50,606 nt of DNA from Candidatus Poseidoniales archaeon (GCA_045567915.1 JBJLCA010000013.1:1-50606), one strand, 5' to 3'. Numbered from the stretch's first letter, positions 5,788-34,277 are shown. A program made the numbers and translations. The notes: a model not told the origin generated them from the letters alone.

Positions 5788-6301
5788 CAAGGATTTAATC
5801 AAAACTCTATTTCTTGGCCTAATTACAGTATTGGTTTTGACAAGTATTTACTATCTAAACTTACCTGGTGACGATGAAAATGAAACCGATAATTCTTATT
5901 TGAAGAGTGAAATATGTTATTATGCGCTGAATGGGATAGTCGCAGACCATCATTATCATTTACAATTAAACATAACTATTATCGAAGAACGAATTGAAAT
6001 TCCTATGAATATCGGATTTGAAAAAGATTCTGATGGAAATACTATTTTTTTACACCCTATTCACACATATGATAATAGTGGAAGAATTCATGTGGAAACT
6101 ACAAAAAATGCTACCGCTGAATTAGGATTCTTTTTTGATATATGGGGAAAGGATTTCTCAAAAAACAAGATACTAAATTATACTTCAAATGATAAGCATA
6201 GTATCGATATTTACATGAATGGAAATAAAATAAGCACATATGAAAAAACTATCCTTGAACCTTATTCTTTTATCGAAATAGTATACAAGAAAAATGACTA
6301 A
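5768..6301 (+). CDS. N-terminally anchored hypothetical protein (HP-x-HT-x-D-x-x-G-x-IH motif)
   Basis: Long ORF with no ATG near its 5' end. A TTG start at 5768 overlaps the upstream gene by 20 nt. TM helix LFLGLITVLVLTSIYYL, then HHYHLQL...LHPIHTYDNSGRIHVE...FFDIWG. The start codon is uncertain. Confidence 0.45.
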   Translation: MAIKKINKDLIKTLFLGLITVLVLTSIYYLNLPGDDENETDNSYLKSEICYYALNGIVADHHYHLQLNITIIEERIEIPMNIGFEKDSDGNTIFLHPIHTYDNSGRIHVETTKNATAELGFFFDIWGKDFSKNKILNYTSNDKHSIDIYMNGNKISTYEKTILEPYSFIEIVYKKND

Positions 6302-10989: not shown

Positions 10990-11139
10990 AACTATTAATG
11001 AAGACACTGGTTTTGAACCTATAGATGATTTAGTGGATGACCTCATTCCAAACCCAACAGATACTACTGATGAGAAAAATTGGAATGAAATGCTTAATCT
11101 AATTCCTGAGATCTACTGCTATCAAGAAGATTGGAAAGA

Positions 11140-11307
11140 CTAATTTTTATCTATTACTAATCCTTCTTTAAGAGGAAATGAGACAAATTCTCCTTCCCAC
11201 TTAACCTCTGACTCCTCGTCAAGTAAACCTGCCGAAACTAATTTGTTCATCATCATTTCAGCATCATCTTTTGGCACTTTCAAATATTGTTTTTCTGCTT
11301 CACTCAT
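11140..11307 (-). CDS. Small protein resembling the Trm5/Taw2 N-terminal D1 domain
   Basis: ATG at 11307 is 1 nt after the ALDH stop codon (the ORF track uses a TTG at 11322). YLKVPKDDAEMMMNKLVSAGLLDEESEVKWEGEFVSFPLKEG follows the pattern of M. jannaschii Trm5 residues CLKINKKHGEQTRRILIENNLLNKDYKITSEGNYLYLPIKD (recalled from memory). Confidence 0.4.
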   Translation of the reverse strand: MSEAEKQYLKVPKDDAEMMMNKLVSAGLLDEESEVKWEGEFVSFPLKEGLVIDKN

Positions 11308-11308
11308 T

Positions 11309-12820: not shown

Positions 12821-12894
12821 GTAAGTCCATGAAGGGCTACAATAAAGAACTTAGTTGTACAAGTTATTTTTAATTGCCCACCTCATGCAACATT

Positions 12895-13575
12895 ATGACT
12901 GGTGTAGATTCTGAACTTAAGGGATATGACCAAGCCCAAAGAGAAATGATGGAGGAAAACTGCATTATCGTAGATAGCGATGATCAGGTCATCGGGCAAG
13001 ATTCAAAAGTTAAATGCCACCTTAACGAAGGAAAATTGCACCGTGCATTCAGCGTTTTACTATTCAATTCAGATAATGAATTATTAATACAGCAAAGGGC
13101 TGATGAGAAGATAACTTTCCCTTCCATTTGGGCAAATAGTTGCTGCAGTCACCCTCTTTATCAAGATGGTGAGGAGGAGGGCATTAAAGGCGCAAAAAGA
13201 GCAGCTATTAGGAAACTAACACAGGAACTTGGAATCAAAGATGGTGAAGTTGAATCTGAGGATTTAACATTCATAACCAAAATGCATTACAAGGCTAGAG
13301 CTGATGAAAAGTGGATTGAACATGAAGTTGACTACATTTTTGCTATGAAAAGGAATATTCAAATTGATCCTAACGCAAATGAAATACAAGAAACCAGATA
13401 TGTTAACTCAGAACAATTGAATGAATTATTCGAGAAGTCTGAGGACGGTGGTGTTAAAATAGGTCCTTGGTTTAGATTAATAAGAGATAATTTCCTCGAT
13501 AAAATATGGATTAATATTGACTCCTTGGATAATATTAGAGATAAGAAAGTTCATCACATGGGAGAAGTAATATGA
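12895..13575 (+). CDS. idi: Isopentenyl-diphosphate delta-isomerase, type 1 (Nudix-fold, eukaryote-like)
   Basis: CIIVDSDDQVIGQDSKVKCH, LHRAFSVLLFNSDNELLIQQRADEKITFPSIWANSCCSHPL, EVDYIF. ATG 12895 sits 26 nt downstream of ttatttttaa (12864-12873). The ORF track extends to a TTG at 12874. Confidence 0.85.
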   Translation: MTGVDSELKGYDQAQREMMEENCIIVDSDDQVIGQDSKVKCHLNEGKLHRAFSVLLFNSDNELLIQQRADEKITFPSIWANSCCSHPLYQDGEEEGIKGAKRAAIRKLTQELGIKDGEVESEDLTFITKMHYKARADEKWIEHEVDYIFAMKRNIQIDPNANEIQETRYVNSEQLNELFEKSEDGGVKIGPWFRLIRDNFLDKIWINIDSLDNIRDKKVHHMGEVI

Positions 13576-14555
13576 GTATAAAAATTAAATTAGCTGAAAA
13601 AGCAAAAGATGTAGAGAAAGCTCTACATGATTATTTAGTAATACGTGAACCTAGGAAACTATACGAAGCAATGGCTCACATACCTCTTGCTGGTGGGAAG
13701 AGACTCCGTCCAGTTATGGCTCAACTTACATGTGAAATGGTAGGAGGTAATGGAAAACTATCGATACCTTTTGCAGCTTCACTTGAAATTATTCACAACT
13801 TTACTTTAGTTCATGACGATGTAATGGATGATGACGATCTAAGGCATGGTGTTGCTGCTTGCCATACAGTTTTCGGATTACCAACTGCAATTCTAGCTGG
13901 AGATTCTCTTTTTGCATATGCTTTTGAAATGATTGCAGAAAGTAATGTCAATGATGAAATAAAATCTGAGCTAGTCAGACATACGGCATATACTGTTAGA
14001 AGAATTGCTGAAGGGCAGCAGATGGACATTAATTTTGAAGAAGAAGAAACTGTAGACCCTGAACTATATCTTGAAATGATTCGATTGAAAACATCAATAC
14101 TTTTCGGATCTGCTGCGTACGGAGGGGCTCTAATTGGTGGAAAGAAAGTTGAGGAAGCAAACGAACTTAGACAAATGGCGATATGGGTCGGTTTAGGATT
14201 TCAAATATGGGATGATTATTTGGATGCTACAGCTTCTGCTGAAGTACTTGGAAAGCCTTCAGGATCTGATATTCGTCAAGGAAAGCGTACTCTTTTAGTC
14301 ATAGAAGCATTAAATCGAACAAACAATGAAGATAGAAAAGAATTAATTAAAATTTTAGATGATAGTAATAATACTGATAATGATGTAAAAAGAGCTGTTG
14401 ACATAATGTCAAATTGTGGAGCTCTTGAAAATTGTCGTGAACAGGCATTAGGTTACCTTAACGGCGCTAAAAAAACAATTGCAAAGTATCCTGAAAGTAG
14501 TGCAAGAACTATGCTTGAAGAATTACTAGAATACATGGTTACAAGAGGACATTAA
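13572..14555 (+). CDS. idsA: Geranylgeranyl diphosphate synthase (trans-polyprenyl synthetase)
   Basis: First Asp-rich motif LVHDDVMDDDDLRHG, second FQIWDDYLD, and GKRLRP upstream. Its start overlaps the idi stop (ATGA). Confidence 0.85.
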   Translation: MSIKIKLAEKAKDVEKALHDYLVIREPRKLYEAMAHIPLAGGKRLRPVMAQLTCEMVGGNGKLSIPFAASLEIIHNFTLVHDDVMDDDDLRHGVAACHTVFGLPTAILAGDSLFAYAFEMIAESNVNDEIKSELVRHTAYTVRRIAEGQQMDINFEEEETVDPELYLEMIRLKTSILFGSAAYGGALIGGKKVEEANELRQMAIWVGLGFQIWDDYLDATASAEVLGKPSGSDIRQGKRTLLVIEALNRTNNEDRKELIKILDDSNNTDNDVKRAVDIMSNCGALENCREQALGYLNGAKKTIAKYPESSARTMLEELLEYMVTRGH

Positions 14556-14597
14556 TCCTACCTAATCGCCTAAATACAGGTTACAAATGAGACTACA

Positions 14598-16013
14598 ATG
14601 AGCGACTCAGAATCTTGGACATCTGGGCTAATAAATGAGCAGCTAAGAAAGAGATTTGAAAATCATGACACTGCCAAAGTTACAAACTTAGCAAGTCAAG
14701 CATGTATTGCTGCGAATATGCCACAAAAAACAAATATAGTATTCGAAGGGAAAGCTGGAGATAACTTTGGAGGACTGAACCAAGGAAGTAAAATTATATT
14801 GAATGGTGATGCTGGAAGATTTGTTGGTAATGGAATGAAAGATGGGGAGATTATCATTAATGGAAATTGTGACGATGGGGCTGCACACTCAATGTCTAAT
14901 GGAAGAATAGTAATTCAAGGTTCTGTAGATGGGGATGCAGGATCATCAATGCAAGGGGGAAGTTTACTAATCTCTGGAAACGTTAGGGGGGATTTAGCTA
15001 CATGCATGAACCAAGGTAGTATCACGATTTGTGGAGATGTTCTGGGCGATGTTGGAAGAATGATGAATAATGGTAAAATATTCATCGCTGGAGACTTTGA
15101 TCAAAATGAAAACATCGATGTGAAAAATATTTCTCCGAGTGATTGGAAGAAATTAAAAACAGATCTTAAAAATAACGGAATTGATTCAAGAGATTTAGAC
15201 TTTAAGTATGTATCTTCTAAAAAATTAATTAAAAGAGAAAAAACATATGAACCTGAATACGTTAGTCTGGATAAAGATATAATCTTAGTACCTGCTAGTC
15301 TCACAAGAAGGCCAAGAACGCCAGGTTTGGACGACATTAACCTATCTTTAACGCTTGGTCAAAAAAAAGAAGAACCTCTGAACCTTACCATACCATTACT
15401 ATGGCAAGGCGATAATGCACCTTCATATTTCAATTGGAAAATTAATAAAAAAATAAATGATGATCTTAATAACTCCAACATAGCCATAATTGATTTGACT
15501 GCAACAGATATTAATCGTAGATTAGATATGAAAAGGCCAACTGATTTAGCAGTTATTGTAGATTTATTGAACCAAAGCTCTGCAAATAAAGTACCAATTC
15601 TAATTCGAATTTACGCGGGGGATGTCGATAATGATTTAGGCGTTATAGTAAAGTCTGGAGCCGACGGAGTTATATTGGTAAGTGACAAAGTGCCAATTGA
15701 GGCAGCTCTCGTCTCATCAAGAAATCACAAAGATCAAATTATAGTTCTGGCTGAAATAAACAAATTAGATTACCAAAACTCTGCAAAACTATTAGCATTA
15801 GGGGCTGCAGGAATATTTTTGCAAGACAAATGCAACGGAAATCAACTAACGGAATTCGGAACTAAGTTGTCCGAGACTATTGGTTCATTGGGCGTCGGAA
15901 AAGCTACAGATTTGAGTGTAGAACACCTTAGAACGACTAGCCAAAAAGTTGCTTCCATGACTGGAATTTCCATAGCTGGATATAACTCAGTTTTACCAAT
16001 GTGGCGACATTAA
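14598..16013 (+). CDS. GXGXG-repeat (GltS domain 3 / FwdC-like beta-helix) fused to a reduced GltS FMN-domain-like TIM barrel
   Basis: Residues ~45-170 are GXGXG turns (GKAGDNFGGL, NGDAGRFVGNGM, NGNCDDGAAHSM, QGSVDGDAGSSM, SGNVRGDLATCM, CGDVLGDVGRMM). The C-terminal part (PILIRIYAGDVDNDLGVIVKSGADGVILVS...LLALGAAGIFLQ) resembles the GltS FMN barrel, but I cannot find GGTGA or GEGG signatures. Confidence 0.6.
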   Translation: MSDSESWTSGLINEQLRKRFENHDTAKVTNLASQACIAANMPQKTNIVFEGKAGDNFGGLNQGSKIILNGDAGRFVGNGMKDGEIIINGNCDDGAAHSMSNGRIVIQGSVDGDAGSSMQGGSLLISGNVRGDLATCMNQGSITICGDVLGDVGRMMNNGKIFIAGDFDQNENIDVKNISPSDWKKLKTDLKNNGIDSRDLDFKYVSSKKLIKREKTYEPEYVSLDKDIILVPASLTRRPRTPGLDDINLSLTLGQKKEEPLNLTIPLLWQGDNAPSYFNWKINKKINDDLNNSNIAIIDLTATDINRRLDMKRPTDLAVIVDLLNQSSANKVPILIRIYAGDVDNDLGVIVKSGADGVILVSDKVPIEAALVSSRNHKDQIIVLAEINKLDYQNSAKLLALGAAGIFLQDKCNGNQLTEFGTKLSETIGSLGVGKATDLSVEHLRTTSQKVASMTGISIAGYNSVLPMWRH

Positions 16014-16023
16014 TGATATTTAA

Positions 16024-16962
16024 ATGAAAGACAGTGCGATTTTCGCTGAGCAATTGTCAAAGAAATATGGTGAACTATCTGCTGTAAACAATGTAGATTT
16101 ATCAGTACCAAATGGAATTTGTTTTGGACTCTTAGGCCCAAATGGTGCAGGAAAAACAACAATGATCCAAATGCTTCAGGCCTCTTCACCTATCACAAAA
16201 GGTAGACTGAAAGTTTTAGGAACTGATGTAAGTAAAGAAAGCCGTAGTGTAAGGAGACGTATCGGAGTAATACCACAGGAAGACAATTTAGATCCTGACT
16301 TTACAGTTGAATACAATTTGATTGTTTACGCAAGGTACTACGGAATAAGTACAGAGGATGCAAAAAATAAATCTTCAAAATTACTTGAAAAGGTCGGATT
16401 AACAGATAAGGCAAATGAGAGGATTTCCAACCTTTCTGGAGGAATGAAAAGACGTTTAATTGTTGCTAGAGGAATGATTAACGATCCTGAATTACTGATT
16501 TTAGATGAACCGACAACTGGCTTAGATCCTCAAGCAAGACATAGTGTTTGGGATCAAATTAGAATTTTTAAAAATGATGGAAAGACGGTTTTGCTAACTA
16601 CACATTATATGGATGAAGCTGAAATCCTTTGCGATGAACTAGCAATTATGGATTCTGGTAAAATTTTAATCAGAGGAACTCCAAAGGACTTAATCTCTAA
16701 CATCGTTGGATCTGACGCAATAGAATTTGTATCGCGTTCATTTGACAAAGGAAAGAAAATACTAGATTCAATTGAAGCTAAAAGTAAACTGAAGAAAGTA
16801 AGTATAAGTCGTGTTTCAGACAGAATTATAGTATATGGAGAGGATAACGAAGAAATAGTTTCTGATTTTGAAAACAATCCAGAACTAACTGATGTGATTA
16901 AGCGAAGGGCAACTCTCGAAGATGTTTTTTTAAAACTAACTGGGAGACAATTGAGAGATTAA
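16024..16962 (+). CDS. ABC transporter ATP-binding protein (ABC-2 / DrrA-NodI type)
   Basis: Walker A GLLGPNGAGKTT, Q-loop IPQE, signature LSGGMKRR, Walker B LLILDEPTTGLD, H-loop TTHYMDEA. Confidence 0.9.
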   Translation: MKDSAIFAEQLSKKYGELSAVNNVDLSVPNGICFGLLGPNGAGKTTMIQMLQASSPITKGRLKVLGTDVSKESRSVRRRIGVIPQEDNLDPDFTVEYNLIVYARYYGISTEDAKNKSSKLLEKVGLTDKANERISNLSGGMKRRLIVARGMINDPELLILDEPTTGLDPQARHSVWDQIRIFKNDGKTVLLTTHYMDEAEILCDELAIMDSGKILIRGTPKDLISNIVGSDAIEFVSRSFDKGKKILDSIEAKSKLKKVSISRVSDRIIVYGEDNEEIVSDFENNPELTDVIKRRATLEDVFLKLTGRQLRD

Positions 16963-16964
16963 GT

Positions 16965-17759
16965 ATGAGAGAAATAAAAGGCGTAGCTCCACTAATGGTT
17001 TATGCAGTATGGAAAAGACATGCCGACGTTTGGGTGAGAACATGGAAAACAAATCTCTTACCTCCGCTAGTCGAACCTATTTTGTATCTTTTAGGTTTTG
17101 GTTTTGGTGTGGGCGCATACATTAATGAAATGGGAGGAGTTAGCTATGTCGAATACATTGCACCCTCAATCTTGGCAATATCTATGATGTTTGGGGCTTT
17201 TTTTGAAGCCACTTATTCTGCATTTGTCAGAATGTATTACCAAAAAACTTGGCAAGCCATTGCTGCAACACCGGCCTCAGCAACTGACGTTTTAGTGGCT
17301 GAATTGGCATGGGCTACTACTAAGTCAATGTCAAATGCTACATTGATGACTATTGCCATATTGTCTGTAGGGCTGGTTGTCAACAAACCTCTTATCTCAA
17401 TCTCTGGAGCAATCCTGATGCCAATTGTGGCAATTCCTGTAGGATTAATGTTTGCAGGAATGGGGCTAATTTTAACTTCTTACACTCCTTCAATAGATTG
17501 GTTTAACATACCTTTCTTTCTTTTCATAAACCCAATGTTTATCTTGGCAGGAACTTTTTTTCCTATTGATGAATTTCCTCCAGTAGCACAGAATATTGCA
17601 ATGTGCTTACCATTAACTCACGCTGCCTTGATTACTAGATCTATAGCCTATGGTAACGGACTGGAAAATTTAGAAGTATCACTGTTGTACATTTTATTTA
17701 TGGCTTTCATCATGACATACTTGGGAGTAAAGTTATGTCGAAAACGAATTGTAACCTAG
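16965..17759 (+). CDS. ABC-2 type transporter permease
   Basis: Six predicted helices. The N-terminus VWKRHADVWVRTWKTNLLPPLVEPILYLLGFGFGVG is typical of NodJ/DrrB-like ABC-2 permeases. It starts 2 nt after the ATPase gene. Confidence 0.8.
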   Translation: MREIKGVAPLMVYAVWKRHADVWVRTWKTNLLPPLVEPILYLLGFGFGVGAYINEMGGVSYVEYIAPSILAISMMFGAFFEATYSAFVRMYYQKTWQAIAATPASATDVLVAELAWATTKSMSNATLMTIAILSVGLVVNKPLISISGAILMPIVAIPVGLMFAGMGLILTSYTPSIDWFNIPFFLFINPMFILAGTFFPIDEFPPVAQNIAMCLPLTHAALITRSIAYGNGLENLEVSLLYILFMAFIMTYLGVKLCRKRIVT

Positions 17760-17768
17760 TTTCCAAAG

Positions 17769-18311
17769 TTAAACTTTCATTTCAGATGAGCGAATATACG
17801 ACCACGTTGAAACTGCAGTTAAAATAGCTGAGATTATCATTTCTCTTTGATGATCTTCCCAACTAATTGCTATAATTACTAGAGAAGCTAAACCGATGAT
17901 TCCAGCATAAAATTTAGCCTTGTCAGGATCATCTGTAAAAAAAGAATGATTTTTACCAGACATAAAAAACCATATAGTTACGTAAACCATTGCTGAAATT
18001 AAGACTGCTGTAGAAAGGGCACCTGAAGTGTCTGAAACTTTAGGTTCAGAACTCAAAAGAGGTATATTCATTCCTTGCTGAATAACTAAAACTAAGTATA
18101 CTACGAGAGTCCCGTAACCAGCTCCTGCAACAAGATATAACCAACCTCTTAGCGATTCAGCTTTTTCGGCTTCACTAGGAATACTTTGAAATTGTAAATC
18201 TGAAGACTTTACTGAAGAAGAAAGGTCTGCTTCTCTTCGTATAACTTCTTCCTTAGTATCTTCTTCTATTTCTTGGCCGGGTAGTGTTTCATCAATATCT
18301 AAATCGTCCAC
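17769..18311 (-). CDS. Membrane protein, function unknown (acidic N-terminal tail, ~4 TM helices)
   Basis: ORF length and hydropathy only. Its start codon shares one base (18311) with the stop codon of the upstream wHTH gene. Confidence 0.45.
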   Translation of the reverse strand: MDDLDIDETLPGQEIEEDTKEEVIRREADLSSSVKSSDLQFQSIPSEAEKAESLRGWLYLVAGAGYGTLVVYLVLVIQQGMNIPLLSSEPKVSDTSGALSTAVLISAMVYVTIWFFMSGKNHSFFTDDPDKAKFYAGIIGLASLVIIAISWEDHQREMIISAILTAVSTWSYIRSSEMKV

Positions 18312-24578: not shown

Positions 24579-25376
24579 ATGAGAAAGGTCCTAGGTATAA
24601 TTATAATTATTATGATGTTGCCTATTGCAAAATCTGAAATTGATGATTACACTAGTCACCCAGGCAATATACCTAATTTTCACAACTTCGAAACTCCACA
24701 ACTAGAACCTGGCGAAAATAGCTTCTTTTCTTTTGAAATACAGAACAGGTATGTTGAAAATATTACAAATGTTAGCATAAATGCTGAAATATACCACAGA
24801 GCAGATATAGATGAATCTGAAAGTTTAGAAAAAATTAATAGTGGAAAACGACCAATAATAGAAAAAAATTGTTGGAATTATAAGGAAAATGATGAAAACT
24901 GTTCTGATAGCTTAAGCCCTGATAAAGCCGGATTTAACATAGAAATGATTGCAGTTAATCAGACAATACAACTAAAATTTGATATCAACACAAACGATGA
25001 CACTATTGAAGGAACCTATTTTGTCAGATTTTCAATGAATTATCAGCTGAATGAGACTGACAGAATTCTTCAATCAAGAGGATTCTGGGATATGGAGCAA
25101 TGGACCAACGCCACTACTAACCTCACTGATGAATATCCTGGAAATATTAATCTTGACTCGTTAAATGTTGATGGAATAATTCCAGATTCATCGTTCGGAA
25201 TTAAGAAACCAATACCAAAATGGCCCCTTTACATCTTAATTACACTTACTGTAGTGTTTGCTGGACTTTCCGTGATTTTTTACCTAGAGGAAGAAGAAAC
25301 TTATCCAGAATTAAATAAATGGCTTCAAAAGATGAGGGGCAAATTTAATCAATTTTGGCTGCGTTTTAAGTACTGA
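24579..25376 (+). CDS. Secreted protein with C-terminal TM anchor, function unknown
   Basis: ATG 24579 (MRKVLGIIIIIMMLPIAKSE signal) lies 26 nt downstream of gttttaaagg (24549-24558). The ORF-track GTG at 24540 would precede that box. C-terminal TM WPLYILITLTVVFAGLSVIFYL. Confidence 0.45.
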   Translation: MRKVLGIIIIIMMLPIAKSEIDDYTSHPGNIPNFHNFETPQLEPGENSFFSFEIQNRYVENITNVSINAEIYHRADIDESESLEKINSGKRPIIEKNCWNYKENDENCSDSLSPDKAGFNIEMIAVNQTIQLKFDINTNDDTIEGTYFVRFSMNYQLNETDRILQSRGFWDMEQWTNATTNLTDEYPGNINLDSLNVDGIIPDSSFGIKKPIPKWPLYILITLTVVFAGLSVIFYLEEEETYPELNKWLQKMRGKFNQFWLRFKY

Positions 25377-26489
25377 AAAAGCAGCCAAAGAAGCATAATC
25401 TAGATCTCCAGTCTTTTCAATGGTCTCTTTTACATTCGGCTCACTTAAAATCGATATTATTTCAGCTAACTGATCGTCATTTAAACTTAAAAAAGCTTTC
25501 CTGAGATAACTTCCCTTAATCAATTCTCCACCTATTCTATTTGACAACAATGCCTGATATTCACTTAAATTTGCCGAACTTAAATTACCTGAATCGATGG
25601 CCTTTGATGCTACTTCAAAAGCTGCATCTGCTGAAATTAAACCTGAATAAATTCCACCGCCTGATGTGGGCTTTGCCATTCCTGCTGCATCTCCTGTTAG
25701 TATGACATTATCTGTATAACTGGGATTAGCAGTTCCAAATGGAATAAGACCACTTATCAAATTAATAATTTTAGCTCCGCCAAGTAGTTTTGAGGGCGCT
25801 CCTTTCAAAAAATAATCCCTGAAGAAAGGCATTGGCTTGTGTGGTAAAGTAGTAGCTATACCAATGCGACCTTCATTAGGACCTGTAGGTATTCCCCAGC
25901 CAAAGAAACGTGGAGCCAACTCTGAGCCAACAAAAAGATCTACATGAGTATCTTTACCTTTGTATCCCCTAACATCTGCGCCAAATGCTCTCAATATCTC
26001 TCTTTTTCCACTTATTCCTGCATTTTTAGCTACCCTAGACAAAGGGCCGTCAGCACCAACCAATAATTTGACATCAATAGTAAATTTTTTAGTTTTATTT
26101 CTTAACTTAGCTCTGATACCGCCATTTACTTTCTCGTGGCCCAAATATGTATGGCCATGAAGGACTTCAGCCCCTGCTTCTAATGCCTTATTAGCTATAG
26201 AACGATCTAAATCTGGCCTGTCAATAACTAGTGCTTTGGTTTCAGAAGCTTGGAAATCTAAGTATGAATCTTTGGGACCCCAGAGCCTAGCTCCATCCAT
26301 TTCTTGCAAAATTGGACGCTCATATCCAAGATACTCAAAGGTTCTGGGAGTTATCAGGCCAGCGCACTGGCAAGGCTCTCCAATTACTTCAGCTCTATCT
26401 ATTAGAACTACTTTATACCCTTCTTTTGAAAAATTCCAGGCAGTTCTAGAACCACTTGGCCCAGCTCCTACTACTAAAACATCAAGCAT
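25311..26489 (-). CDS. Geranylgeranyl reductase family flavoprotein (archaeal lipid saturase type)
   Basis: FAD dinucleotide fold DVLVVGAGPSGSRTAWNFSKEGYKVVLIDR, LVGADGPLSRV, LTGDAAGMAKPTSGGGI. Confidence 0.85.
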   Translation of the reverse strand: MLDVLVVGAGPSGSRTAWNFSKEGYKVVLIDRAEVIGEPCQCAGLITPRTFEYLGYERPILQEMDGARLWGPKDSYLDFQASETKALVIDRPDLDRSIANKALEAGAEVLHGHTYLGHEKVNGGIRAKLRNKTKKFTIDVKLLVGADGPLSRVAKNAGISGKREILRAFGADVRGYKGKDTHVDLFVGSELAPRFFGWGIPTGPNEGRIGIATTLPHKPMPFFRDYFLKGAPSKLLGGAKIINLISGLIPFGTANPSYTDNVILTGDAAGMAKPTSGGGIYSGLISADAAFEVASKAIDSGNLSSANLSEYQALLSNRIGGELIKGSYLRKAFLSLNDDQLAEIISILSEPNVKETIEKTGDLDYASLAAFSVLKTQPKLIKFAPHLLKPFI

Positions 26490-26499
26490 TGCTTGAAAC

Positions 26500-29400
26500 T
26501 TACTCTAGAGGAACCAAATCAACTTGACACTTATCTGTCAAACCTGCATCGGCAAGTGTTAGATTATTATCTACTGCAACACCGTTCAACATTACTGCAA
26601 AATTTGCGTGAGGTAATGGGAATTTGCCTACACAATTTTGTAATAATTTATTAACTGGCATATTAGATGGAACTTTAACATTTGCTGTTTTACCATCTAT
26701 TGTTGACACTATTGCTACGCTAATTTTTGCTGGTGGTGCTGCTGCAGGTTCGTCTGCTGCACTCTCTTCGCCATCAGCTTCGTCTTCTGAATCTGAAGCG
26801 GATGCTGGTGAACTACCAGACCTTCTGCGTAATAATACAACAGGTATTGCCAAAGCTACTAAAGCAACTAATGCTAATACTGGTATTAGTAGAGGAACTC
26901 CCTTGACTAATTCTCTTTCAGTTAAAGTATTAATGAATTCTATTTCTCCAAGAACTGCTGCCAATTGAAGCTCGAAGTCCTCCATAACAAATTCATCATT
27001 ATCGGTTCCATCTCCATTATTTGTAAGATCGCAATCATTACATTGCTGTATCTCAAAGCTTCCTGTACCTGCATCTATAGTCCATGTCAAAGTTAGGAAA
27101 TCTTTGTTATCTTTATCCGGAACTGTCCAGGTAAAACTTAATTCTGTAGTATCATCCTTGTTTATTGATTCACTGACTTGCTGAGAAAGCTCAGTACCAG
27201 TACTATCTTCGAACTTAACTTGTAGTGGCTTAGATGAGATTTGCCAATCTGCATTACCAATGTTCTGTACTGTTACAGTTATATCAACTTCTTCTCCGAC
27301 TTGAGGTGAAGTTGGATCCATAACTACCTTCTTGATTTTAAAATCGGGTAATACTGAGAATTCAACTGGAACTTCACTTTGCTCAAATACTCCAGTTCTT
27401 GGCCATACATTATCTGAATATCTACCTAATTCATCAAACATTCTACCTGTTTCTTCAGAGAAACCATCTCCTTCTGATTCACAAGTGAAATCTGGAATAT
27501 CTACATCATCACATACTGGATTAACTTCAGCAATAAACGCAGTCCACTCCTCGAGCTGAGCTTTCCATCTGAAGCGAACTTCTTGAGTTTCACCAGCATC
27601 TAAATCAAACAACACATATTCTTGATTTGTACGATCTTTCAATCTCACATTTTCACTGCTTGTATCTGCTGTAATGTAAAGGCGACTATTATCCACGTCA
27701 GCAGCTCCTGCATTAGTGACTGTAACCGTGAAAGTTACGGTATCATCTACGTTTGGAGTTCCAGAATTATCACCTGCATACTTACTGTCAACACGCATTG
27801 CTGTTATTTGTAAATCTGGTTTTACTCTGAGTAATTCGGAATATCTAGCATCGTTATTATTTTCATTCTCCTCTAGAATTTCACCATTATCATTGTTTTC
27901 GTCATAATCTGCTCTAGCTTCAACATACCACTCGCCACCTTTGATAAGCCAATCATCTGAAACTAATTCTTTCGAATTAGCTTCCTTAATGTTGGTTGAC
28001 CTTCCTGAACTTCCATAAAGTTGGTAAATGTAAGTATTCTTAGAATCATCAAGCTCAAATCCTGCTATTAACAATTCGTCAATTTCTTGTTGTGTTGTTG
28101 GTGACTTCTTAGGATAGTAATAAATTTCAACATTCACATCGTCTGCATCAGCTGAACCTGTGTTTTCAACATCAACATATACAACAACTGTGTCTCCGTC
28201 TTTAACTTGCGAAGCATTACCAAATACTCCATCAATTTCTATTCGGATATTACTTTGCTTAATGACGATTTCAGGTCTTTGAATTTGTACAATCAAATCA
28301 ATTTCTTGACGTGCATTAGGGTCATCTTCTTCATTCCTAACTGAAATTTTAATAGTTTCATTTCCTACTTCAGCTTCATCATTCACTGAAACGAAAACCC
28401 AAAGATCATCAAGTTCCCCTTCCTGAATAGTTACTCCTGAATTTGACCAAGCCTGTGTTTTAGAACTGTCTTGGAAGAAAGTAACTGTCCAACCATCTTC
28501 TAGAGTAGATTCAACTTCAGGGATAAAAATATCATCGTTAGAGCCTGTATTATCCAATTTAACCTTGAATTTTACACTATTCTGTGTAGTAGACCCTTCA
28601 TATTCAGGGTATATTTCTTTGACGCTGTCAATTGCTGTAGCATCTAATTCCCTTCTTGGGGATGCAACTTCTAAATTTACAGATATTTGCTCAGCTGGGT
28701 CTATGCCATCATTAGGTGAAAACTCGGTTAGAACACTGTAATTTCCAATGTCTGAATCTTGATCAGGTTCTACACACAAGTAAAGATACTTGGATTGACC
28801 GGCACCTATGGAACCACTGAAAGAACTCGAACAAGAAGAACTTTGGAATATTTCGACATTCCACTCATCTGGATATGTGGTTGCAATTGTTTCAACATTT
28901 ACACTATCTTGACCGTTACCTGTGTTCGTAAGCTTGAAAGTAAATTTTTCGGTTCTCTCAGATGCTTGAGTTTCTGTTGAAGGATAAGAAGTTATGGTAT
29001 TTGCACCTACAATTTCTACCTTAGCTCCAAAAATTTGACCAATATCTACTTGTAAAGATGCAGTATCACTAACTGACAAATCACCACCAGACTTAACTTT
29101 CACATTAATTGAATAGCTGTTTGCCTGTAATGCATTTCTCTCTTGATTAGTTAAATTATCTAGAACATATTCGGGTAAAGTCACGTTTACGGTAACTGAA
29201 CCTGTTTGGTCCTTGTCTAATGTCAATGAAGTGGTGTTAGCTAAAGCCCAACCCAAATCATCATCTAAAATCGAAATTATTAAATTATCTGCACCGTCAC
29301 CAGTATTCTTAACATCAATTGTGAAAGAGGCTGTAGTTCCTGGTAATTTTTCAATTTGTGTTACATCAGTACTAACTTGTACTCCTCTGCTCAAATCGAC

Positions 29401-31839
29401 CTTAACTGTCAAAGTAATAGAGTCCGTTGATTTAGTTCCATTCTCGCAACCTTCGCAATCTGAAACTCCCTTGACAACCAACTCATAATCTCCTTTCGAA
29501 GTACTTTCAGGGACTGTAATAGTCAAAGTTACTTCCTCTTGACCACCTTCTGCAACGTTAATGAAAGGATTACTGAAATCGATTCCAGTCCAACCCTCTG
29601 GAGGTGTATTAGTCATAGCTATAATATCATCACCAGTTCCTAAATTATCAACATCAATTGTAATCGAAACGGGTACGCCAACCGTAGCTTCAACAGTTCT
29701 ATCTGAGTCTGCAACGGATAAATCAATCCAATACTCCTGATTAACTATAGTGATTATACTTACTGTTTTATTTGCATATTTAGGTGGATTTTCCTTCTGC
29801 GCTTCGTCTGATGACGCTGTTAAATTAATGGTAAATGCCTTATTGTCTTCACCTGATCTTATGGATACATTTAATTTGACTAATTTTTCATCACCTGCTG
29901 CAATATCCTCAACCTGGAAAGATACAGGATCTACCGACCAACCTGCTGGATAATCATCTATGTTAACTGTAAATGTGTCAACTCCCGTACCTTCGTTCTG
30001 TATTCTAACATCATACTGAACTGTTGAACCTGGATCGCCGCTCTTAGACGAAACAACGACGTCAACTTTAAACTGCTTGTTAACTGAAACTTTGACAGTT
30101 CCTGTATCATAAGCTAATGGATTATCTTCAGAAGTACCATTGACTATTATGTCATTGTCTCCAACTGTCGCATCATCATCTATATTTACAGTCAAATTAA
30201 CTGTTTTTGTTTCACCACTAGTCAATTCTACTTCATCAACAATTGAAGCCCAAGATGCTTTATCACCTTCTAAAGCCAAGGACACAGTATCTTCCCCATT
30301 ACCTTTATTCTTAATTGTCATTTCAAAAGTTAATTCATCCCCAGGATCTCCTTTCTTGGAACTATCGCCGGAAACCTGAACTGAAACCTCGTAGACTTGA
30401 AGGACATTGACAAAAATATTTCTAGTCGTTATTGTAGAATCATCTTCTGAAGTTGCCTTAATAATTAAATTGTAACCGTTCTTTGCCTCTGTATCTTTAG
30501 GCGGAGTTACCCTAAGTGTCGTATTGGAGGTTGCACCTGCTGCAAGAGTAAATGCTGAATCGCCTAATTGTCCCCAGCTAGCATTTCCACCAACTAAAGA
30601 CAGAGAAATATCATCCTCTCCGTTACCATCATTTGTAATGTCAATCGTAAAGTTAACTTGCTCTTCAGGCTTTGCAGACTGAGTATCCTCACCATCAATA
30701 GCCAACTTTGGTTCATAATTTTGAAGTACTGTTGTTCGTGAAGTATACGTAGAATTAATTGATGCGTTATAATCTGAAGAGATGGTTACAATAATTTGCG
30801 TTTCAACGTCAGCTGCAGCATCTTCTGGTGCTTTAACAACCAATACGTCTGTTAGCGTAATATTATCGTCAACACCTAAGTTGCTAATCTTATCTTGATC
30901 TAATGAAGCATCCCAACCTGCTGGTAAACTTGAAGTATCAACTTCCAGATTAAATGTGTCTACTGCATTACCTTTATTTGTTACTTCAAATGAATAATAA
31001 ACACGTTTACCTGCTTCTACATCCGTAGAACTTGGACCTTCTTTATCCACTTGAAGAGCAGGAAGCTGATTTACTTTAACTGTTACAGATGTTGAAGATA
31101 CAGTTTGTCCATCTTCAGAGGTAGAAACAATCGATATACTTTTCAATCCAGCTATTGCTTCAATATCTGGAGTTACTGAAAGATTGAAGTATCCTACTTC
31201 GTTGATGTCAAGAGTTAATGTTGAAGGTTGAGGAGTTATATCCCAAGAATCTACTCCATTTGCAGTGAAAGAAATTGTTACACTGTCTTCAGTATTACCT
31301 CCTGAATTCTTAACACTAACCATAAATTTAACATTTTCATTTGGATCTACAGTCTTTTCGCCAGTAGTTGGAGTTAAGGTAGTTCCATATACATTATTAA
31401 CAGTCAGTGAAGCTGTTTGAGTTTTAGTTTTACCACCGCTAGCACTATTCTGTGATTTAGATTTGAAACTAACTTGAGCAGAATCACCACCCTCTGCAGT
31501 ATTTGTTGTTCTGTTGGCTATCTTAATGAATAAAGTAGCTGTCCCAGATTCATCTTCTTCAACGGATAAAGTAGATGGTAAAATAAATGCAGTATAACCT
31601 GTAGGGATAGTCGAATTAGTCACACTCATATCGTAAGTGTCATCATTATCTCCTGTATTTTCAATTGTTATTGTATATTGCAATTGCTCTTCAGGATCGC
31701 CAGATTGAGAGCTAGGGCTTACCGTCATCTTATGATCGTAAGCATCAGCTGAAGCTACTCCTGTAATCAAGAGAAATCCAAAGCATATTAGCGCAAGCGC
31801 TAACGTGTTAGCAAACCAATTTTTTAGGTTGAGGCTCAT
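26500..31839 (-). CDS. Giant (1779 aa) surface protein: signal peptide, ~13 tandem beta-sandwich modules, TM helix, cytoplasmic linker and ubiquitin-like tail
   Basis: Single uninterrupted 5.3-kb ORF. Recurrent module signature [FY]x[IV]x[IV]xNxG[NTSD]xxD (for example ITIENTGDNDDTYDM, FEVTNKGNAVDTFNL, MTIKNKGNGEDTVSL, VDVENTGSADADDVNV), as in CARDB / NEW3-type domains. TM LLIPVLALVALVALAIPVVLL followed by RRR. Confidence 0.8.
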   Translation of the reverse strand: MSLNLKNWFANTLALALICFGFLLITGVASADAYDHKMTVSPSSQSGDPEEQLQYTITIENTGDNDDTYDMSVTNSTIPTGYTAFILPSTLSVEEDESGTATLFIKIANRTTNTAEGGDSAQVSFKSKSQNSASGGKTKTQTASLTVNNVYGTTLTPTTGEKTVDPNENVKFMVSVKNSGGNTEDSVTISFTANGVDSWDITPQPSTLTLDINEVGYFNLSVTPDIEAIAGLKSISIVSTSEDGQTVSSTSVTVKVNQLPALQVDKEGPSSTDVEAGKRVYYSFEVTNKGNAVDTFNLEVDTSSLPAGWDASLDQDKISNLGVDDNITLTDVLVVKAPEDAAADVETQIIVTISSDYNASINSTYTSRTTVLQNYEPKLAIDGEDTQSAKPEEQVNFTIDITNDGNGEDDISLSLVGGNASWGQLGDSAFTLAAGATSNTTLRVTPPKDTEAKNGYNLIIKATSEDDSTITTRNIFVNVLQVYEVSVQVSGDSSKKGDPGDELTFEMTIKNKGNGEDTVSLALEGDKASWASIVDEVELTSGETKTVNLTVNIDDDATVGDNDIIVNGTSEDNPLAYDTGTVKVSVNKQFKVDVVVSSKSGDPGSTVQYDVRIQNEGTGVDTFTVNIDDYPAGWSVDPVSFQVEDIAAGDEKLVKLNVSIRSGEDNKAFTINLTASSDEAQKENPPKYANKTVSIITIVNQEYWIDLSVADSDRTVEATVGVPVSITIDVDNLGTGDDIIAMTNTPPEGWTGIDFSNPFINVAEGGQEEVTLTITVPESTSKGDYELVVKGVSDCEGCENGTKSTDSITLTVKVDLSRGVQVSTDVTQIEKLPGTTASFTIDVKNTGDGADNLIISILDDDLGWALANTTSLTLDKDQTGSVTVNVTLPEYVLDNLTNQERNALQANSYSINVKVKSGGDLSVSDTASLQVDIGQIFGAKVEIVGANTITSYPSTETQASERTEKFTFKLTNTGNGQDSVNVETIATTYPDEWNVEIFQSSSCSSSFSGSIGAGQSKYLYLCVEPDQDSDIGNYSVLTEFSPNDGIDPAEQISVNLEVASPRRELDATAIDSVKEIYPEYEGSTTQNSVKFKVKLDNTGSNDDIFIPEVESTLEDGWTVTFFQDSSKTQAWSNSGVTIQEGELDDLWVFVSVNDEAEVGNETIKISVRNEEDDPNARQEIDLIVQIQRPEIVIKQSNIRIEIDGVFGNASQVKDGDTVVVYVDVENTGSADADDVNVEIYYYPKKSPTTQQEIDELLIAGFELDDSKNTYIYQLYGSSGRSTNIKEANSKELVSDDWLIKGGEWYVEARADYDENNDNGEILEENENNNDARYSELLRVKPDLQITAMRVDSKYAGDNSGTPNVDDTVTFTVTVTNAGAADVDNSRLYITADTSSENVRLKDRTNQEYVLFDLDAGETQEVRFRWKAQLEEWTAFIAEVNPVCDDVDIPDFTCESEGDGFSEETGRMFDELGRYSDNVWPRTGVFEQSEVPVEFSVLPDFKIKKVVMDPTSPQVGEEVDITVTVQNIGNADWQISSKPLQVKFEDSTGTELSQQVSESINKDDTTELSFTWTVPDKDNKDFLTLTWTIDAGTGSFEIQQCNDCDLTNNGDGTDNDEFVMEDFELQLAAVLGEIEFINTLTERELVKGVPLLIPVLALVALVALAIPVVLLRRRSGSSPASASDSEDEADGEESAADEPAAAPPAKISVAIVSTIDGKTANVKVPSNMPVNKLLQNCVGKFPLPHANFAVMLNGVAVDNNLTLADAGLTDKCQVDLVPLE
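27040..31737 (-). repeat. Intragenic tandem array of ~13 divergent ~105-125-aa modules (protein-level repeat; boundaries approximate)
   Basis: The xNxGxxxD strand motif recurs about every 110-120 residues through residues ~55-1520. The repeats are divergent at DNA level and I saw no long identical DNA repeats. Confidence 0.55.
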
Positions 31840-31895
31840 AACGTATCAATTTTTTCACCAGAAAGTAGCATATAAAGCTTAGTGAATAATTATTA

Positions 31896-31919: not shown

Positions 31920-32210
31920 ATGAGTAACTCCTATTCACTACCCCCTATATTGGTCATGCAAATTGAAGCTCTCGTCGATTCTGGACACTTTAGTAGCAGA
32001 TCTGATGTAGTAAAAGAATCTCTCAGATTTATGATAGAAAAGAAGAATCACCTAAGATATGCTTCTGCCGTTGAAATATATAAGAAAGGAAGGGCGACAT
32101 TGACTAAAGGAGCCGAAATAGCAGGCGTTTCTCCAGACAATTTTAGAGGTATTTTAAATGATCAAGGAGTTGTTACTCCAGATACTGTTGAATGGGAATC
32201 TATTGAGTGA
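31920..32210 (+). CDS. Ribbon-helix-helix (ParD/CopG-like) domain fused to a UPF0175-like HTH domain
   Basis: N-terminus LPPILVMQIEALVDSGHFSSRSDVVKESLRFMIE fits the ParD-type RHH pattern (l..id.lv.sG.y.srSevvReaLR). The C-terminus AVEIYKKGRATLTKGAEIAGVSPDNFRGILNDQGV fits UPF0175 (a..lY..g.lslgkaAelAg.s...f...L). Confidence 0.55.
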   Translation: MSNSYSLPPILVMQIEALVDSGHFSSRSDVVKESLRFMIEKKNHLRYASAVEIYKKGRATLTKGAEIAGVSPDNFRGILNDQGVVTPDTVEWESIE

Positions 32211-33310
32211 TGCAAAAATCTGATACGTACAATAAAGCCCTTATTTGGCTTGAGGACTTAAACCAAAACAAGATTGTGCCTGGCTTGGAACGCATACAGA
32301 CTATGATGAGGCTACTTGGAAATCCCCAAAATGAACTGAGAGTAATATCCATTGGTGGGACGAACGCCAAAGGGAGCACAAGTCACAACCTTAGTAAAAC
32401 TTTGATGCAATCTTCCAAAAAAATTGGATGTTTTACCTCTCCCCATTTACATAGTGTAAGGGAAAGAATTAAAATTAATAATAAAAATATAGATAAAAAA
32501 GATTTTGCTAAGAATCTGCTTGAATTAAAAGATTTAGCTGAGCTGAATAATCTGCAAATGACCTATTTTGAAATATTGACTGCGCTAGCCTACTTATATT
32601 TCCATAATGAAAAAGTAGATTATGCAATTATGGAAATAGGACTAGGGGGTGAATGGGATGCCGTCAATGTTGCTGATGCTGAAATTGCGATATTAACTAC
32701 GCTAGGATTAGACCATACCGATTATTTGGGAAACAGCTTAATTGAAATAGCCACTACAAAAGCCAAAATAGTAAGAGAGAACAGCATAGTTATCACAGGG
32801 TGGGCTAATAGATATCACAAATATATACCTAAATCAAGTGAATTGTATAAAGGAAAATCAGTCAAGGAGTGGATTGAAATTTGTGTTCAATGTCTAAAGT
32901 TACCAATTAGACCTCTAATTAGTGAAATTCCTGGAAGAAGAGAAAATCACTTGAATTTCACACTAGATACGGCCCACAATCGACAAGCAATAAATTACTT
33001 ACTAAATATTAACAAAAACTACCAGAAAATAATCCTCGGCATGTTAAAGGATAAAGATATTGAAACTTTTGTTTCTGAATTACCTAAGAATTGTACAGTA
33101 TTAGCTTGTAACCTAGACAGTGAAAGAAGTGCTACATCTGAATACATATCTGCCATTTGTGAAAAATTAAAGCTTAAATGTGAGCAACATGAAAGTGTAA
33201 ATGAAGCTATTTTATCAGTAAATGACGAAAAAACATTGATTACAGGATCTTTCTACACTGTTGCTGAAGCAAGAAAATATTTCAAATTAGAAGGATATAG
33301 TGAATTATAA
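32210..33310 (+). CDS. folC: Folylpolyglutamate synthase / dihydrofolate synthase (Mur ligase family)
   Basis: YNKALIWLEDL, PGLERIQTMMRLLGNPQ, P-loop ISIGGTNAKGST, FTSPHLHSVRERI, MEIGLGGEWDAVN, LGLDHTDYLG. The ATG at 32210 overlaps the RHH stop (TGATG); the ORF track uses a GTG at 32207. Confidence 0.8.
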   Translation: MQKSDTYNKALIWLEDLNQNKIVPGLERIQTMMRLLGNPQNELRVISIGGTNAKGSTSHNLSKTLMQSSKKIGCFTSPHLHSVRERIKINNKNIDKKDFAKNLLELKDLAELNNLQMTYFEILTALAYLYFHNEKVDYAIMEIGLGGEWDAVNVADAEIAILTTLGLDHTDYLGNSLIEIATTKAKIVRENSIVITGWANRYHKYIPKSSELYKGKSVKEWIEICVQCLKLPIRPLISEIPGRRENHLNFTLDTAHNRQAINYLLNINKNYQKIILGMLKDKDIETFVSELPKNCTVLACNLDSERSATSEYISAICEKLKLKCEQHESVNEAILSVNDEKTLITGSFYTVAEARKYFKLEGYSEL

Positions 33311-33335
33311 TTATGTGTCCTTTCATCAGTGTACA

Positions 33336-34277
33336 ATGAAACAAGGCTTAACGGGAATAACTGTTTTGATTCTGCTAACCACTATGGTCAGTGGGTGCTT
33401 AGAAAATGGCCTTTTTGGAAGTGAAGAAAATAATTTAGCAATAAGTTCTCCTGAGTGGGAAAAAGGAGACTTTTGGGAATACTCTGTAACAATCGATGAT
33501 AAACAATTTTCAACAACTATGGTTGTTTCAATCGATGATGATGATTCTGACTATTACATTGGCACAGGAAACCTAGATGATGCAAAAAGACATGCAGTTC
33601 TAAACTACAATCCTGCTATCGGTAGAGTTCAAATGTCGGATTTTTCAATATATGAAAACAATGTCCCCCAAAAGATCACTGATTTCCCTTTGAAACAAGA
33701 TAAAAGTTGGGAATTTGGACTCTATGGTGAAAATTTCAAAGCTAGCGTAATAGACATCACTGAAACCAATGCTGAAATTAGCGCAAACGCAGATAGCGGA
33801 GCATTCATCAAATATACTTTTGACAAGAATGCAAGGTGGCTTAAAAATTTTGAATATACAAATTCAAATGGAGAAATTGTATTAATCATGAACCTAGGAA
33901 ATTATGGTAGCGGATATACTGGCAATTCTTATTTTTGTAGAGGTGGTGATCTTTTTGATGAGGAATTTATTGGACCTGACTTTGGAGTTTATGACACTCA
34001 ATTTGCCAACGGAGGTCATGAAAGATATGGCCCTTGGAACTACATTGTTTACTATTTAGAGGCTGACATTGGCAGTTCTGGAAGTGGAGAATTAGTCCTA
34101 AGAGACCAAGAAGGTACTGAAGTTTTAATTGAAACATTTAGTCCTGGGACTAATCAACATATTATGGGAACTGTAGCTGGAAGTAGCGGAAATTGGACCT
34201 TGGAAATATCATTATCAGGGAATGCTGATGTTAGGGCTAGAATCGCTGGAGCAATACAGTATACGTATTCAGTCTAA
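33336..34277 (+). CDS. Putative secreted lipoprotein, function unknown
   Basis: MKQGLTGITVLILLTTMVSGC gives a signal peptide with lipobox-like VSGC. The ORF track extends to a GTG at 33300 inside folC. Confidence 0.45.
   Translation: MKQGLTGITVLILLTTMVSGCLENGLFGSEENNLAISSPEWEKGDFWEYSVTIDDKQFSTTMVVSIDDDDSDYYIGTGNLDDAKRHAVLNYNPAIGRVQMSDFSIYENNVPQKITDFPLKQDKSWEFGLYGENFKASVIDITETNAEISANADSGAFIKYTFDKNARWLKNFEYTNSNGEIVLIMNLGNYGSGYTGNSYFCRGGDLFDEEFIGPDFGVYDTQFANGGHERYGPWNYIVYYLEADIGSSGSGELVLRDQEGTEVLIETFSPGTNQHIMGTVAGSSGNWTLEISLSGNADVRARIAGAIQYTYSV

Follow-up and report, generated by a model that had tools for sequence, protein, structure and literature searches.

The 50,606-nucleotide (nt) stretch of archaeal DNA analysed here (GCA_045567915.1 JBJLCA010000013.1:1-50606, deposited as Candidatus Poseidoniales archaeon and in its full length called the window) encodes on its reverse strand a giant surface protein of 1779 amino acids (aa), which terminates in a ubiquitin-like beta-grasp domain predicted to lie at the cytoplasmic face of the membrane. 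The gene product is a type I membrane protein composed, in this order, of a signal peptide, an ectodomain, a transmembrane helix, a basic cluster, a linker and the ubiquitin-like domain (Table 1). Four independent routes, namely Pfam, a profile search against Protein Data Bank (PDB) sequences, AlphaFold and Foldseek, assign a ubiquitin-like beta-grasp fold to this C-terminal domain, hereafter the tail. The tail is under strong purifying selection, being the slowest-evolving part of the protein. With moderate confidence, we consider the tail to be a non-covalent docking module at the inner membrane face, for which EccD, a membrane protein of type VII secretion with a YukD-like domain in the cytoplasm, may serve as the nearest working analogy.

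Topology, fold and relatives of the tail

A first-pass annotation, made from the sequence alone, had proposed that a 1779-aa open reading frame (ORF) with a Sec-type N-terminus and a large ectodomain ends in a membrane-tethered module of this kind. The ORF list and the translation reproduce this ORF, of which positions 26503..26829 are the final 109 codons, together with every string quoted from it, and the compact terminal segment of 74 aa lies where it had been placed. Two lengths require adjustment: the ectodomain is large as claimed, but comprises 1618 aa and not about 1650 aa, while the linker of 35 aa is obtained if the RRR cluster is counted and is 32 aa long after it.

A Kyte-Doolittle hydropathy scan of the full-length protein (19-aa window, threshold 1.6) returns two hydrophobic segments only, aa 7-34 (peak 2.38) and aa 1642-1674 (peak 2.99), with the next highest internal peak at 1.14 staying well under the threshold, in agreement with the earlier assignment of one Sec-type N-terminus and one membrane span followed by RRR. 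The N-terminal segment (NWFANTLALALICFGFLLITGVASA|DAY) carries a signal-peptidase-like site (VASA|D) and is predicted to be a cleavable-looking signal peptide; the second segment contains LLIPVLALVALVALAIPVVLL, directly followed by RRR. The flanks of the transmembrane helix have a net charge of 0 on the N-terminal side and the three arginines on the C-terminal side. A basic cluster after the helix is present in 33/33 orthologues shown, always on the side of the tail, and consists of two to five basic residues (for example RRR, RRRR, KRRR, SRRMRR or KAGKKK). As one signal peptide and one transmembrane helix are combined with a basic cluster on the tail side, the ectodomain is predicted to be outside and the tail in the cytoplasm; hydropathy and the positive-inside rule place the tail at the inner face, as initially suggested, and not outside the cell.

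With respect to the fold, the isolated tail matches the Pfam family TUG-UBL1 (PF11470) with 27.5 bits (cut-off 23.3, E 3.6e-6), followed by Rad60-SLD with 22.7 bits (cut-off 23.8, E 8.7e-5) and ubiquitin with 21.1 bits (cut-off 25.4, E 2.7e-4). In the scan of the full-length protein TUG-UBL1 reaches 22.4 bits, under its cut-off of 23.3. The protein possesses neither a UBX domain nor a second ubiquitin-like domain, the UBL1-UBL2-UBX architecture of TUG/ASPSCR1 being absent, and the TUG-UBL1 match is best treated as a clan-level assignment. A profile of eight orthologous tails compared with all PDB sequences aligns with polyubiquitin without gaps over 67 columns (E 6.9e-4). In this alignment, the columns of ubiquitin L8, I44 and V70 hold Ile or Val, Met and Val, respectively, and the archaeal protein ends three residues ahead of the Gly-Gly of ubiquitin.

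AlphaFold2, run on the tail once without an alignment and once with an alignment of 22 sequences, gives in both cases the order β-β-α-β-(β)-β, with (in tail numbering) β1 at 35-42, β2 at 48-54, α1 at 59-69, β3 at 77-81, a two-residue β4 and β5 at 101-107. The predicted local distance difference test (pLDDT) of the domain is 72-87 per 10-residue block, whereby the five models calculated with the alignment reach 68.6-71.4 overall; the linker, which has a net charge of -8, stays below 50 in the alignment-based model. Foldseek retrieves with the tail model 409 PDB matches at E <= 0.001, the top 50 of which are all of the ubiquitin type (SUMO, ISG15, NEDD8, ubiquitin, ubiquitin-based designs and other ubiquitin-like domains). 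SUMO1/2/3, ISG15, NEDD8, ubiquitin and the ubiquitin of Caldiarchaeum superimpose over 72-77 columns with a root-mean-square deviation of 1.6-1.9 Å (E 2.5e-6 to 5e-5), the target-normalised template-modelling scores being 0.75-0.85 for SUMO, ISG15 and ubiquitin and 0.74-0.79 for the Caldiarchaeum ubiquitin (6fj7, 6fno). The strand-strand-helix-strand layout, which had been read from the sequence as ubiquitin- or YukD-like, is therefore borne out by two AlphaFold2 models, Foldseek, Pfam and the PDB profile, and structure prediction combined with a structural search, the check that had been suggested for it, returns a beta-grasp.

When 1.84 billion representative proteins were searched exhaustively with HMMER for the tail, 40 proteins only were recovered at E <= 1e-3. 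These comprise the orthologues from Marine Group III (MGIII) archaea, the divergent protein P0058 with its fragments and, among the further matches examined, bacterial multi-domain proteins and eukaryotic polyubiquitins, the latter at E ~5e-5 to 4e-4 for those checked against Pfam. Since the bacterial relatives score 55-70 bits on Pfam YukD (PF08817) and their YukD-type profile matches the archaeal tail profile in hhalign with 98.2% probability (E 4.5e-14, 74 columns), the tail is, as judged from sequence comparison, a divergent relative of the non-conjugated YukD/EsaB type, with bacterial YukD/EsaB-type domains as its closest relatives beyond the orthologues. Common to the tail and YukD-type domains is the motif G-K-T-x-x-x-x-[LV]-P-x-[DN]-x-P...L...[LV]-x-K-x-x-L-P. 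'EsaB/YukD family protein' is the name already given by the NCBI pipeline to one tail fragment, P0033, and PF11470 is the Pfam label precomputed for most of the tail fragments.

Tandem YukD-type domains occur in unusual contexts in the bacterial proteins P0052, P0075, P0053 and P0055; two of these, of 305 and 288 aa, have N-terminal hydrophobic stretches, transmembrane-like by eye, ahead of two YukD domains, one of 1052 aa is arranged as CHAT-YukD-HINT-YukD, and in another two YukD domains are followed by TPR repeats.

The affinity to TUG-UBL1 bears on a further interpretation, in which the tail would be a handle for turnover or extraction by which Cdc48/VAT, the proteasome or membrane-bound LonB pulls out and degrades misassembled or surplus copies of the 190-kDa protein. 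TUG is a p97 cofactor in eukaryotes, where the membrane-bound ubiquitin-like or UBX proteins Herp, TMUB1 and UBXD8 recruit p97 or the proteasome. Consistent with such a handle, TUG-UBL1 is the best Pfam match, the hydrophobic-patch positions of ubiquitin remain hydrophobic in the tail, the flexible linker would offer an unfoldase an initiation site and the domain is strongly conserved. Yet the match is clan-level and stays under its threshold when the full-length protein is scanned, the tail is closest in sequence to adaptors of the YukD type and not to proteasome-targeting ubiquitin-like domains, and ORF scans of the window find no unfoldase or protease gene linked to the locus, so that we regard this role as unlikely.

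The divergent relative P0058 is a 2374-aa orthologue (31% identity over 1854 aa) encoded at 10001-17125 of the metagenomic contig L034 (ENA ERZ24794656; 55% guanine plus cytosine), to which P0051 and P0123 are related as fragments. P0058 shows the same overall plan, and the order FolC, giant gene, geranylgeranyl reductase is kept on L034; the linker is, however, Gly/Ala/Pro-rich and not acidic, and the domain is followed by a Pro/Ala-rich C-terminal extension of 30-35 aa. A search with the P0058 tail retrieves 2 proteins only, its candidate list being swamped by low-complexity words. The contig also carries genes of the heterodisulfide-reductase/FlpD type, which suggests an anaerobic relative as its source.

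P0058 and its fragment P0051 read ...ILVVAKGG ahead of the extension, which resembles a ubiquitin precursor and would fit a tail that is cleaved and then joined to target proteins in the manner of ubiquitin or SAMP. As the related P0123 of the same lineage reads ...ILVVAKDAGAP at this place, the Gly-Gly is not conserved and the precursor reading was rejected. In MGIII, the proteins all end in ...VPLE, ...VSLE(E), ...APKQ or ...APKK, none with Gly-Gly; the protein of the window ends in ...DLVPLE, three residues short of the ubiquitin Gly-Gly, in line with the earlier remark that a terminal Gly-Gly is missing. Moreover, the domain is fixed to a membrane protein via its N-terminus, and no E1-like adenylyltransferase, E2 or JAMM peptidase was found among the scanned ORFs of at least 120 aa in the 50.6-kb window. 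A conjugatable or released modifier is thus highly improbable.

Distribution, conservation and possible roles

Two tail motifs scanned against one genome per species of GTDB identify 33 tail loci in 33 genomes, one per genome, all being metagenome-assembled genomes (MAGs) or single-cell genomes of Marine Group III or Poseidoniia, including CG-Epi1 and CG-Bathy1. The lineage of the window is accordingly Marine Group III within the class Poseidoniia and not Marine Group II/Poseidoniales sensu stricto. In 24 of the 33 loci the gene is complete, and in all of these the tail terminates the product, which is 1771-2083 aa long when counted from the first Met and follows one and the same plan throughout; in the other nine the gene runs off the contig end. 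Marine Group II is far more abundant than Marine Group III, and many intermediates would be expected if the tail were present there; the exhaustive search showed none. Within the reach of these searches, the tail is confined to one orthologous group.

This distribution also speaks to the concern that the architecture is an artefact, either as an assembly chimera or with a tail that actually lies outside the cell. A tail absent from the orthologues had been named as a sign of a chimera; it is present in 33/33 genomes and terminates 24/24 complete genes. As these 24 independent genes from different MAGs and single-cell genomes agree in architecture and in syntenic place, an assembly chimera is ruled out, and an external tail is opposed by the basic cluster, always on the tail side of the helix, in a protein with two hydrophobic segments only. 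What could be put forward in favour of an artefact are the short metagenomic 'proteins' P0032, P0035, P0036 and P0048, in which the tail is fused to unrelated N-termini. An artefact of either kind is scarcely credible.

The same set of short metagenomic proteins, which also includes P0038, carries the tail or half of it; one contains a sigma-70 region 1.1 match and two contain the adaptor-derived peptide MCIRDR. These fusions look like chimeric assemblies and not like new architectures.

The conservation of the protein is uneven. In 24 comparisons of orthologues with the window protein, identity is 57-100% for the tail, 34-96% for the ectodomain, 29-86% for the transmembrane helix and, lowest of all, 22-78% for the linker. 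Within the mature protein no part is better conserved than the tail in 24/24 comparisons; three close relatives show 100% identity in the signal peptide as well as in the tail. Over the 74 codons of the domain, synonymous and non-synonymous codon differences amount to 26:0 (L003), 41:6 (L012) and 31:13 (L021). Across eight diverse tails 43/77 positions are invariant, including residues of surface type (K, N, Q, S, P, H), and the positions which are invariant across MGIII and the distant lineage represented by P0058 form the patterns DGK.A..K.P..MP...L...C, covering β2, the following loop and α1, and L.DAG ahead of the last strand. Counted among the invariant residues are K1717, N1720, K1722, P1724, N1726, P1728, Q1734 and C1736. 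Such a pattern of invariance would be expected of a specific interaction surface.

The degree of conservation is pertinent to a purely mechanical role as a plug, in which the beta-grasp would block the passage of the C-terminus through Sec and resist the pulling out of the transmembrane helix under load, a partner being unnecessary. One helix anchors an ectodomain of 1618 aa, the domain is compact and located at the extreme C-terminus, and other surface proteins of the region have a small folded or charged cytoplasmic tail, all of which is compatible with a plug. Folding alone, however, would not need 43/77 invariant positions across eight diverse tails, nor does it explain the near absence of non-synonymous change and the invariant surface-type residues, which makes a plug rather improbable.

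A tail that acts as a homotypic organiser, with neighbouring tails binding one another or the acidic linkers and thereby spacing a surface lattice from inside, is supported by a single-copy, conserved protein that fits a major envelope component and by the conserved β2 edge strand. The ubiquitin-like domains of EccD are reported to dimerise, which would provide a parallel. Against binding to the linkers stands their poor conservation and, in the sister lineage, their Gly/Ala/Pro-rich and not acidic composition; we consider homotypic organisation quite improbable.

In the docking role favoured here, a flexible tether would keep the tail about 30 residues beneath the membrane, where it would bind a conserved cytoplasmic or membrane-proximal partner non-covalently. 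The surface protein would in consequence be coupled to the interior of the cell, be it for its positioning, its anchoring or its assembly. The groove between β2 and α1 together with the L-x-D-A-G loop would be the likely contact face, since it is here that those positions cluster which stay invariant across the deepest divergences. The equivalent face is used in the recognition of SUMO-interacting motifs (SIM) by SUMO and of LC3-interacting regions (LIR) by Atg8. That the tail physically links the surface protein to an intracellular partner, as proposed in the first-pass annotation, is plausible.

Several observations weigh against docking by a YukD-type tail. Confidence in the structural models is moderate, with no residue at pLDDT 90, and the tail scores 14.5 bits against PF08817, under the cut-off of 27. 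The topology is deduced from hydropathy and the positive-inside rule alone, and the binding face is argued from linear conservation mapped on secondary structure, not from computed surface exposure. The high conservation equally fits a turnover handle and self-association, and the conserved neighbourhood, with its housekeeping genes throughout, points to no partner.

The ectodomain is itself informative as to the kind of protein that would be coupled. Its 1618 aa have a net charge of -177, are rich in Thr, Ser, Asp and Asn and contain 21 N-x-S/T sequons. NCBIfam assigns the ectodomain to NF041740 (choice_anch_T, the choice-of-anchor T family of surface proteins) with 201.8 bits in seven stretches (cut-off 70), PACE-CTERM-PROT ('putative S-layer protein') reaches 103.6, under its cut-off of 110, and Pfam detects repeated modules of NPCBM_assoc/NEW3, CARDB, FixG_C, DUF11 and Ig_VWA7. 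The eight cysteines form four close pairs (795/798, 1003/1022, 1443/1453 and 1600/1603), two of them CxxC, which suggests disulfides or metal sites in an extracellular region otherwise poor in cysteine (0.5%). A phmmer search with the whole protein against PDB sequences yields 0 matches at E <= 0.01, leaving the ectodomain without a sequence relative in the PDB, and therefore does not connect it with an S-layer protein of solved structure. Used as a query, the 521 aa of the ectodomain nearest to the membrane retrieve 49 proteins with 52-100% identity, consistent with close orthologues, and among these 49 there is no sign of a homologue with a different anchor. A putative S-layer role is supported indirectly by the single-copy, core and syntenic gene, by the acidic, sequon-bearing ectodomain and by the PACE-CTERM-PROT score just below cut-off; the giant protein would be a core envelope component, either an S-layer-like or a glycocalyx protein.

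Genomic neighbourhood

Table 1. Coordinates of the giant gene, of the parts of its product and of surrounding features in the window
Feature	Position	Strand	Basis and remarks
Giant surface protein gene, complete	26500..31839	-	ORF list and translation; 1779 aa/codons; stop codon 26500-26502
Signal peptide, aa 1-31 (MSLNLKNWFANTLALALICFGFLLITGVASA|DAY)	31747..31839	-	Hydropathy peak 2.38 (aa 7-34), V-A-S-A|D site; same N-terminus in orthologues
Ectodomain, aa 32-1649, Ig-like modules repeated	26893..31746	-	NCBIfam, Pfam, composition
Single transmembrane helix, aa 1650-1670 (LLIPVLALVALVALAIPVVLL)	26830..26892	-	Hydropathy maximum 2.99; transmembrane helix at the equivalent position in all orthologues
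RRR basic cluster directly C-terminal to the helix (positive-inside signal)	26821..26829	-	Translation, hydropathy scan
Linker, 32 aa (Ser/Ala/Asp/Glu/Pro), aa 1674-1705	26725..26820	-	Predicted disordered; poorly conserved
Ubiquitin-like beta-grasp domain, 74 aa, aa 1706-1779, end ...DLVPLE	26503..26724	-	Pfam, AlphaFold2, Foldseek, profiles
Candidate archaeal TATA-like box CTTTATATG	31869..31877	-	By eye only; 30-38 nt upstream of ATG
Geranylgeranyl reductase family gene	25311..26489	-	TIGR02032, 203.4 bits (cut-off 158.8)
WD40-PKD protein, 865 aa	18870-21467	-	Signal peptide, WD40 beta-propeller, PKD domains, transmembrane helix, C-terminal zinc ribbon; 5 kb from the giant gene
Predicted type I membrane protein, 469 aa	23086-24495	-	No Pfam/NCBIfam match; signal peptide, sequon-rich ectodomain, C-terminal transmembrane helix
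Predicted type I membrane protein, 278 aa	24540-25376	+	No Pfam/NCBIfam match; signal peptide, sequon-rich ectodomain, C-terminal transmembrane helix
96-aa ORF between the giant gene and FolC	31920-32210	+	3' end overlaps the FolC start
ORFs without Pfam match at E <= 1e-5 (601, 211, 177, 508, 325, 180 aa)	3295-5100 (-), 5152-6301 (+), 9463-10989 (+), 33300-34277 (+), 17769-18311 (-)

The genes in the neighbourhood are archaeal housekeeping genes, encoding Kae1, Bud32, RNA polymerase subunit F, DUF655 and Pus10 as well as aspartyl- and phenylalanyl-tRNA synthetases, primase and RNase HII. FolC, geranylgeranyl reductase, Kae1, Bud32 and RNA polymerase subunit F are conserved neighbours of the giant gene, and gene order over 20 kb agrees among all eight MGIII loci that were examined. 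Because this whole region is syntenic across MGIII, adjacency as such carries little functional signal.

The gene for the geranylgeranyl reductase may be an exception owing to its persistence. It starts 10 nt past the stop codon of the giant gene on the same strand, with no room for a terminator, and as the gap is so short the two genes are probably co-transcribed. The adjacency is found in all eight MGIII loci examined and on the distant contig L034, with gaps of ~10-190 nt; on L034 (17126-17346) 20 nt separate the two genes, and the reductase is 49% identical over its first 67 aa. It may reflect co-transcription of an envelope protein with an enzyme of membrane-lipid saturation, or mere conserved synteny.

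Four genes for type I surface proteins are located within 13 kb. In the WD40-PKD protein the transmembrane helix is followed by a linker rich in Ser, then by a basic stretch and finally by a zinc ribbon of the form CxxC-16-CxxC (TVECPECSSQIKIPKISGSQQLKCPDCGLEGEIDI), and across the MGIII loci the ribbon is conserved and the linker is not. As the WD40-PKD protein in this way parallels the giant protein, small conserved cytoplasmic knobs on surface proteins are suggested to be a theme in MGIII. In Pfam the ribbon resembles generic zinc ribbons only (LysW-like, 26.4 bits, cut-off 27); a known ubiquitin-binding finger was considered and rejected, with no NZF/RanBP, UBP, A20 or UBZ among the best 25 of 58 weak matches. 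The 469-aa protein has a Ser/Asp/Glu-rich cytoplasmic tail resembling the linker of the giant protein and is fast-evolving, with 26-28% identity in deep-water lineages.

It is conceivable, though doubtful, that several core type I surface proteins of MGIII, each with a small and highly conserved cytoplasmic domain at the end of a Ser/acid-rich tether, together provide a hitherto unrecognised outside-to-inside coupling, in which these domains, here the ubiquitin-like domain and the zinc ribbon, bind each other or a common cortical scaffold. If true, the pair of ubiquitin fold and zinc finger would be a non-covalent archaeal counterpart of the eukaryotic zinc-finger readers of ubiquitin, without the conjugation machinery.

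At the position of the 96-aa ORF, L034 carries a 97-aa gene with RHH_8/UPF0175 matches, and the 325-aa ORF is kept beside FolC in most MGIII loci and undetected there in two Bathy-type loci (L032, L033).

Comparison with known systems

The archaea of Marine Group III occur widely in the ocean but have not been cultured. To our knowledge nothing is known of their cell envelope, for which the gene described here encodes a strong candidate core protein. If the tail docks a partner, it would offer a handle on a cortical scaffold, on the machinery of division or assembly or on quality control under the membrane. Docking would furthermore mean that non-conjugated adaptors of the YukD type, known from the secretion machines of bacteria, also operate in the envelopes of archaea, and would add a data point on ubiquitin-like domains as plain interaction modules outside of conjugation systems. 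In practical terms little can be gained from this at present, as the organisms are uncultured and the gene context indicates no partner.

Among membrane-tethered domains of this fold, the YukD-like domain of EccD is cytoplasmic and fused to a membrane protein of type VII secretion, with a role in assembly, as an adaptor or in structure having been proposed (PMC1779556). With YukD/EsaB and EccD, the archaeal tail is predicted to share a non-conjugated ubiquitin-like beta-grasp without Gly-Gly, and with EccD the attachment to a membrane protein at what would also be the cytoplasmic face. In contrast to EccD, in which the domain is N-terminal to a polytopic region, the tail belongs to an archaeal host and is C-terminal to the single transmembrane helix of a giant type I protein; genes of type VII secretion (the FtsK-like ATPase EssC/EccC and WXG100) were found nowhere among the scanned ORFs of the window.

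In eukaryotes, Herp/HERPUD1, TMUB1/2, UBXD8 and TUG (PF11470) likewise present a ubiquitin fold at the cytoplasmic membrane face as a recruitment site. These proteins, however, are linked to endoplasmic reticulum-associated degradation or p97, and none is known to have a large extracellular domain. SAMPs and the ubiquitin of Caldiarchaeum subterraneum have the same fold as the tail, which unlike them lacks Gly-Gly, is not free-standing and is not accompanied in the window by linked E1, E2 or JAMM genes.

With archaeal surface glycoproteins the giant protein has in common the signal peptide, the acidic Thr/Ser/Asn-rich Ig-like ectodomain with sequons, the C-terminal anchor and the basic cluster. 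Whereas such glycoproteins, anchored by a transmembrane helix or by PGF-CTERM and archaeosortase, end a few residues after the basic cluster, about 106 more residues including a folded domain follow here; 109 residues after the transmembrane helix stand against the short basic tail of sortase and archaeosortase signals. An NCBIfam scan, in which no model, those of PGF-CTERM and similar sorting signals included, matches the tail at E <= 0.01, rules out a known C-terminal sorting signal.

That no archaeal system of this architecture has been described, as the first-pass annotation had supposed, agrees with a full-text literature search, which found no description, although such absence is no proof of its being undescribed. 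Already known are the domain as such, which automated pipelines tag, and membrane-tethered, non-conjugated ubiquitin-like adaptors as represented by EccD and the eukaryotic Herp, TMUB and UBXD proteins. New are the architecture, in which a giant surface protein of archaea bears a ubiquitin fold at its predicted cytoplasmic end and of which this is the first case found, and the lineage in which it occurs.

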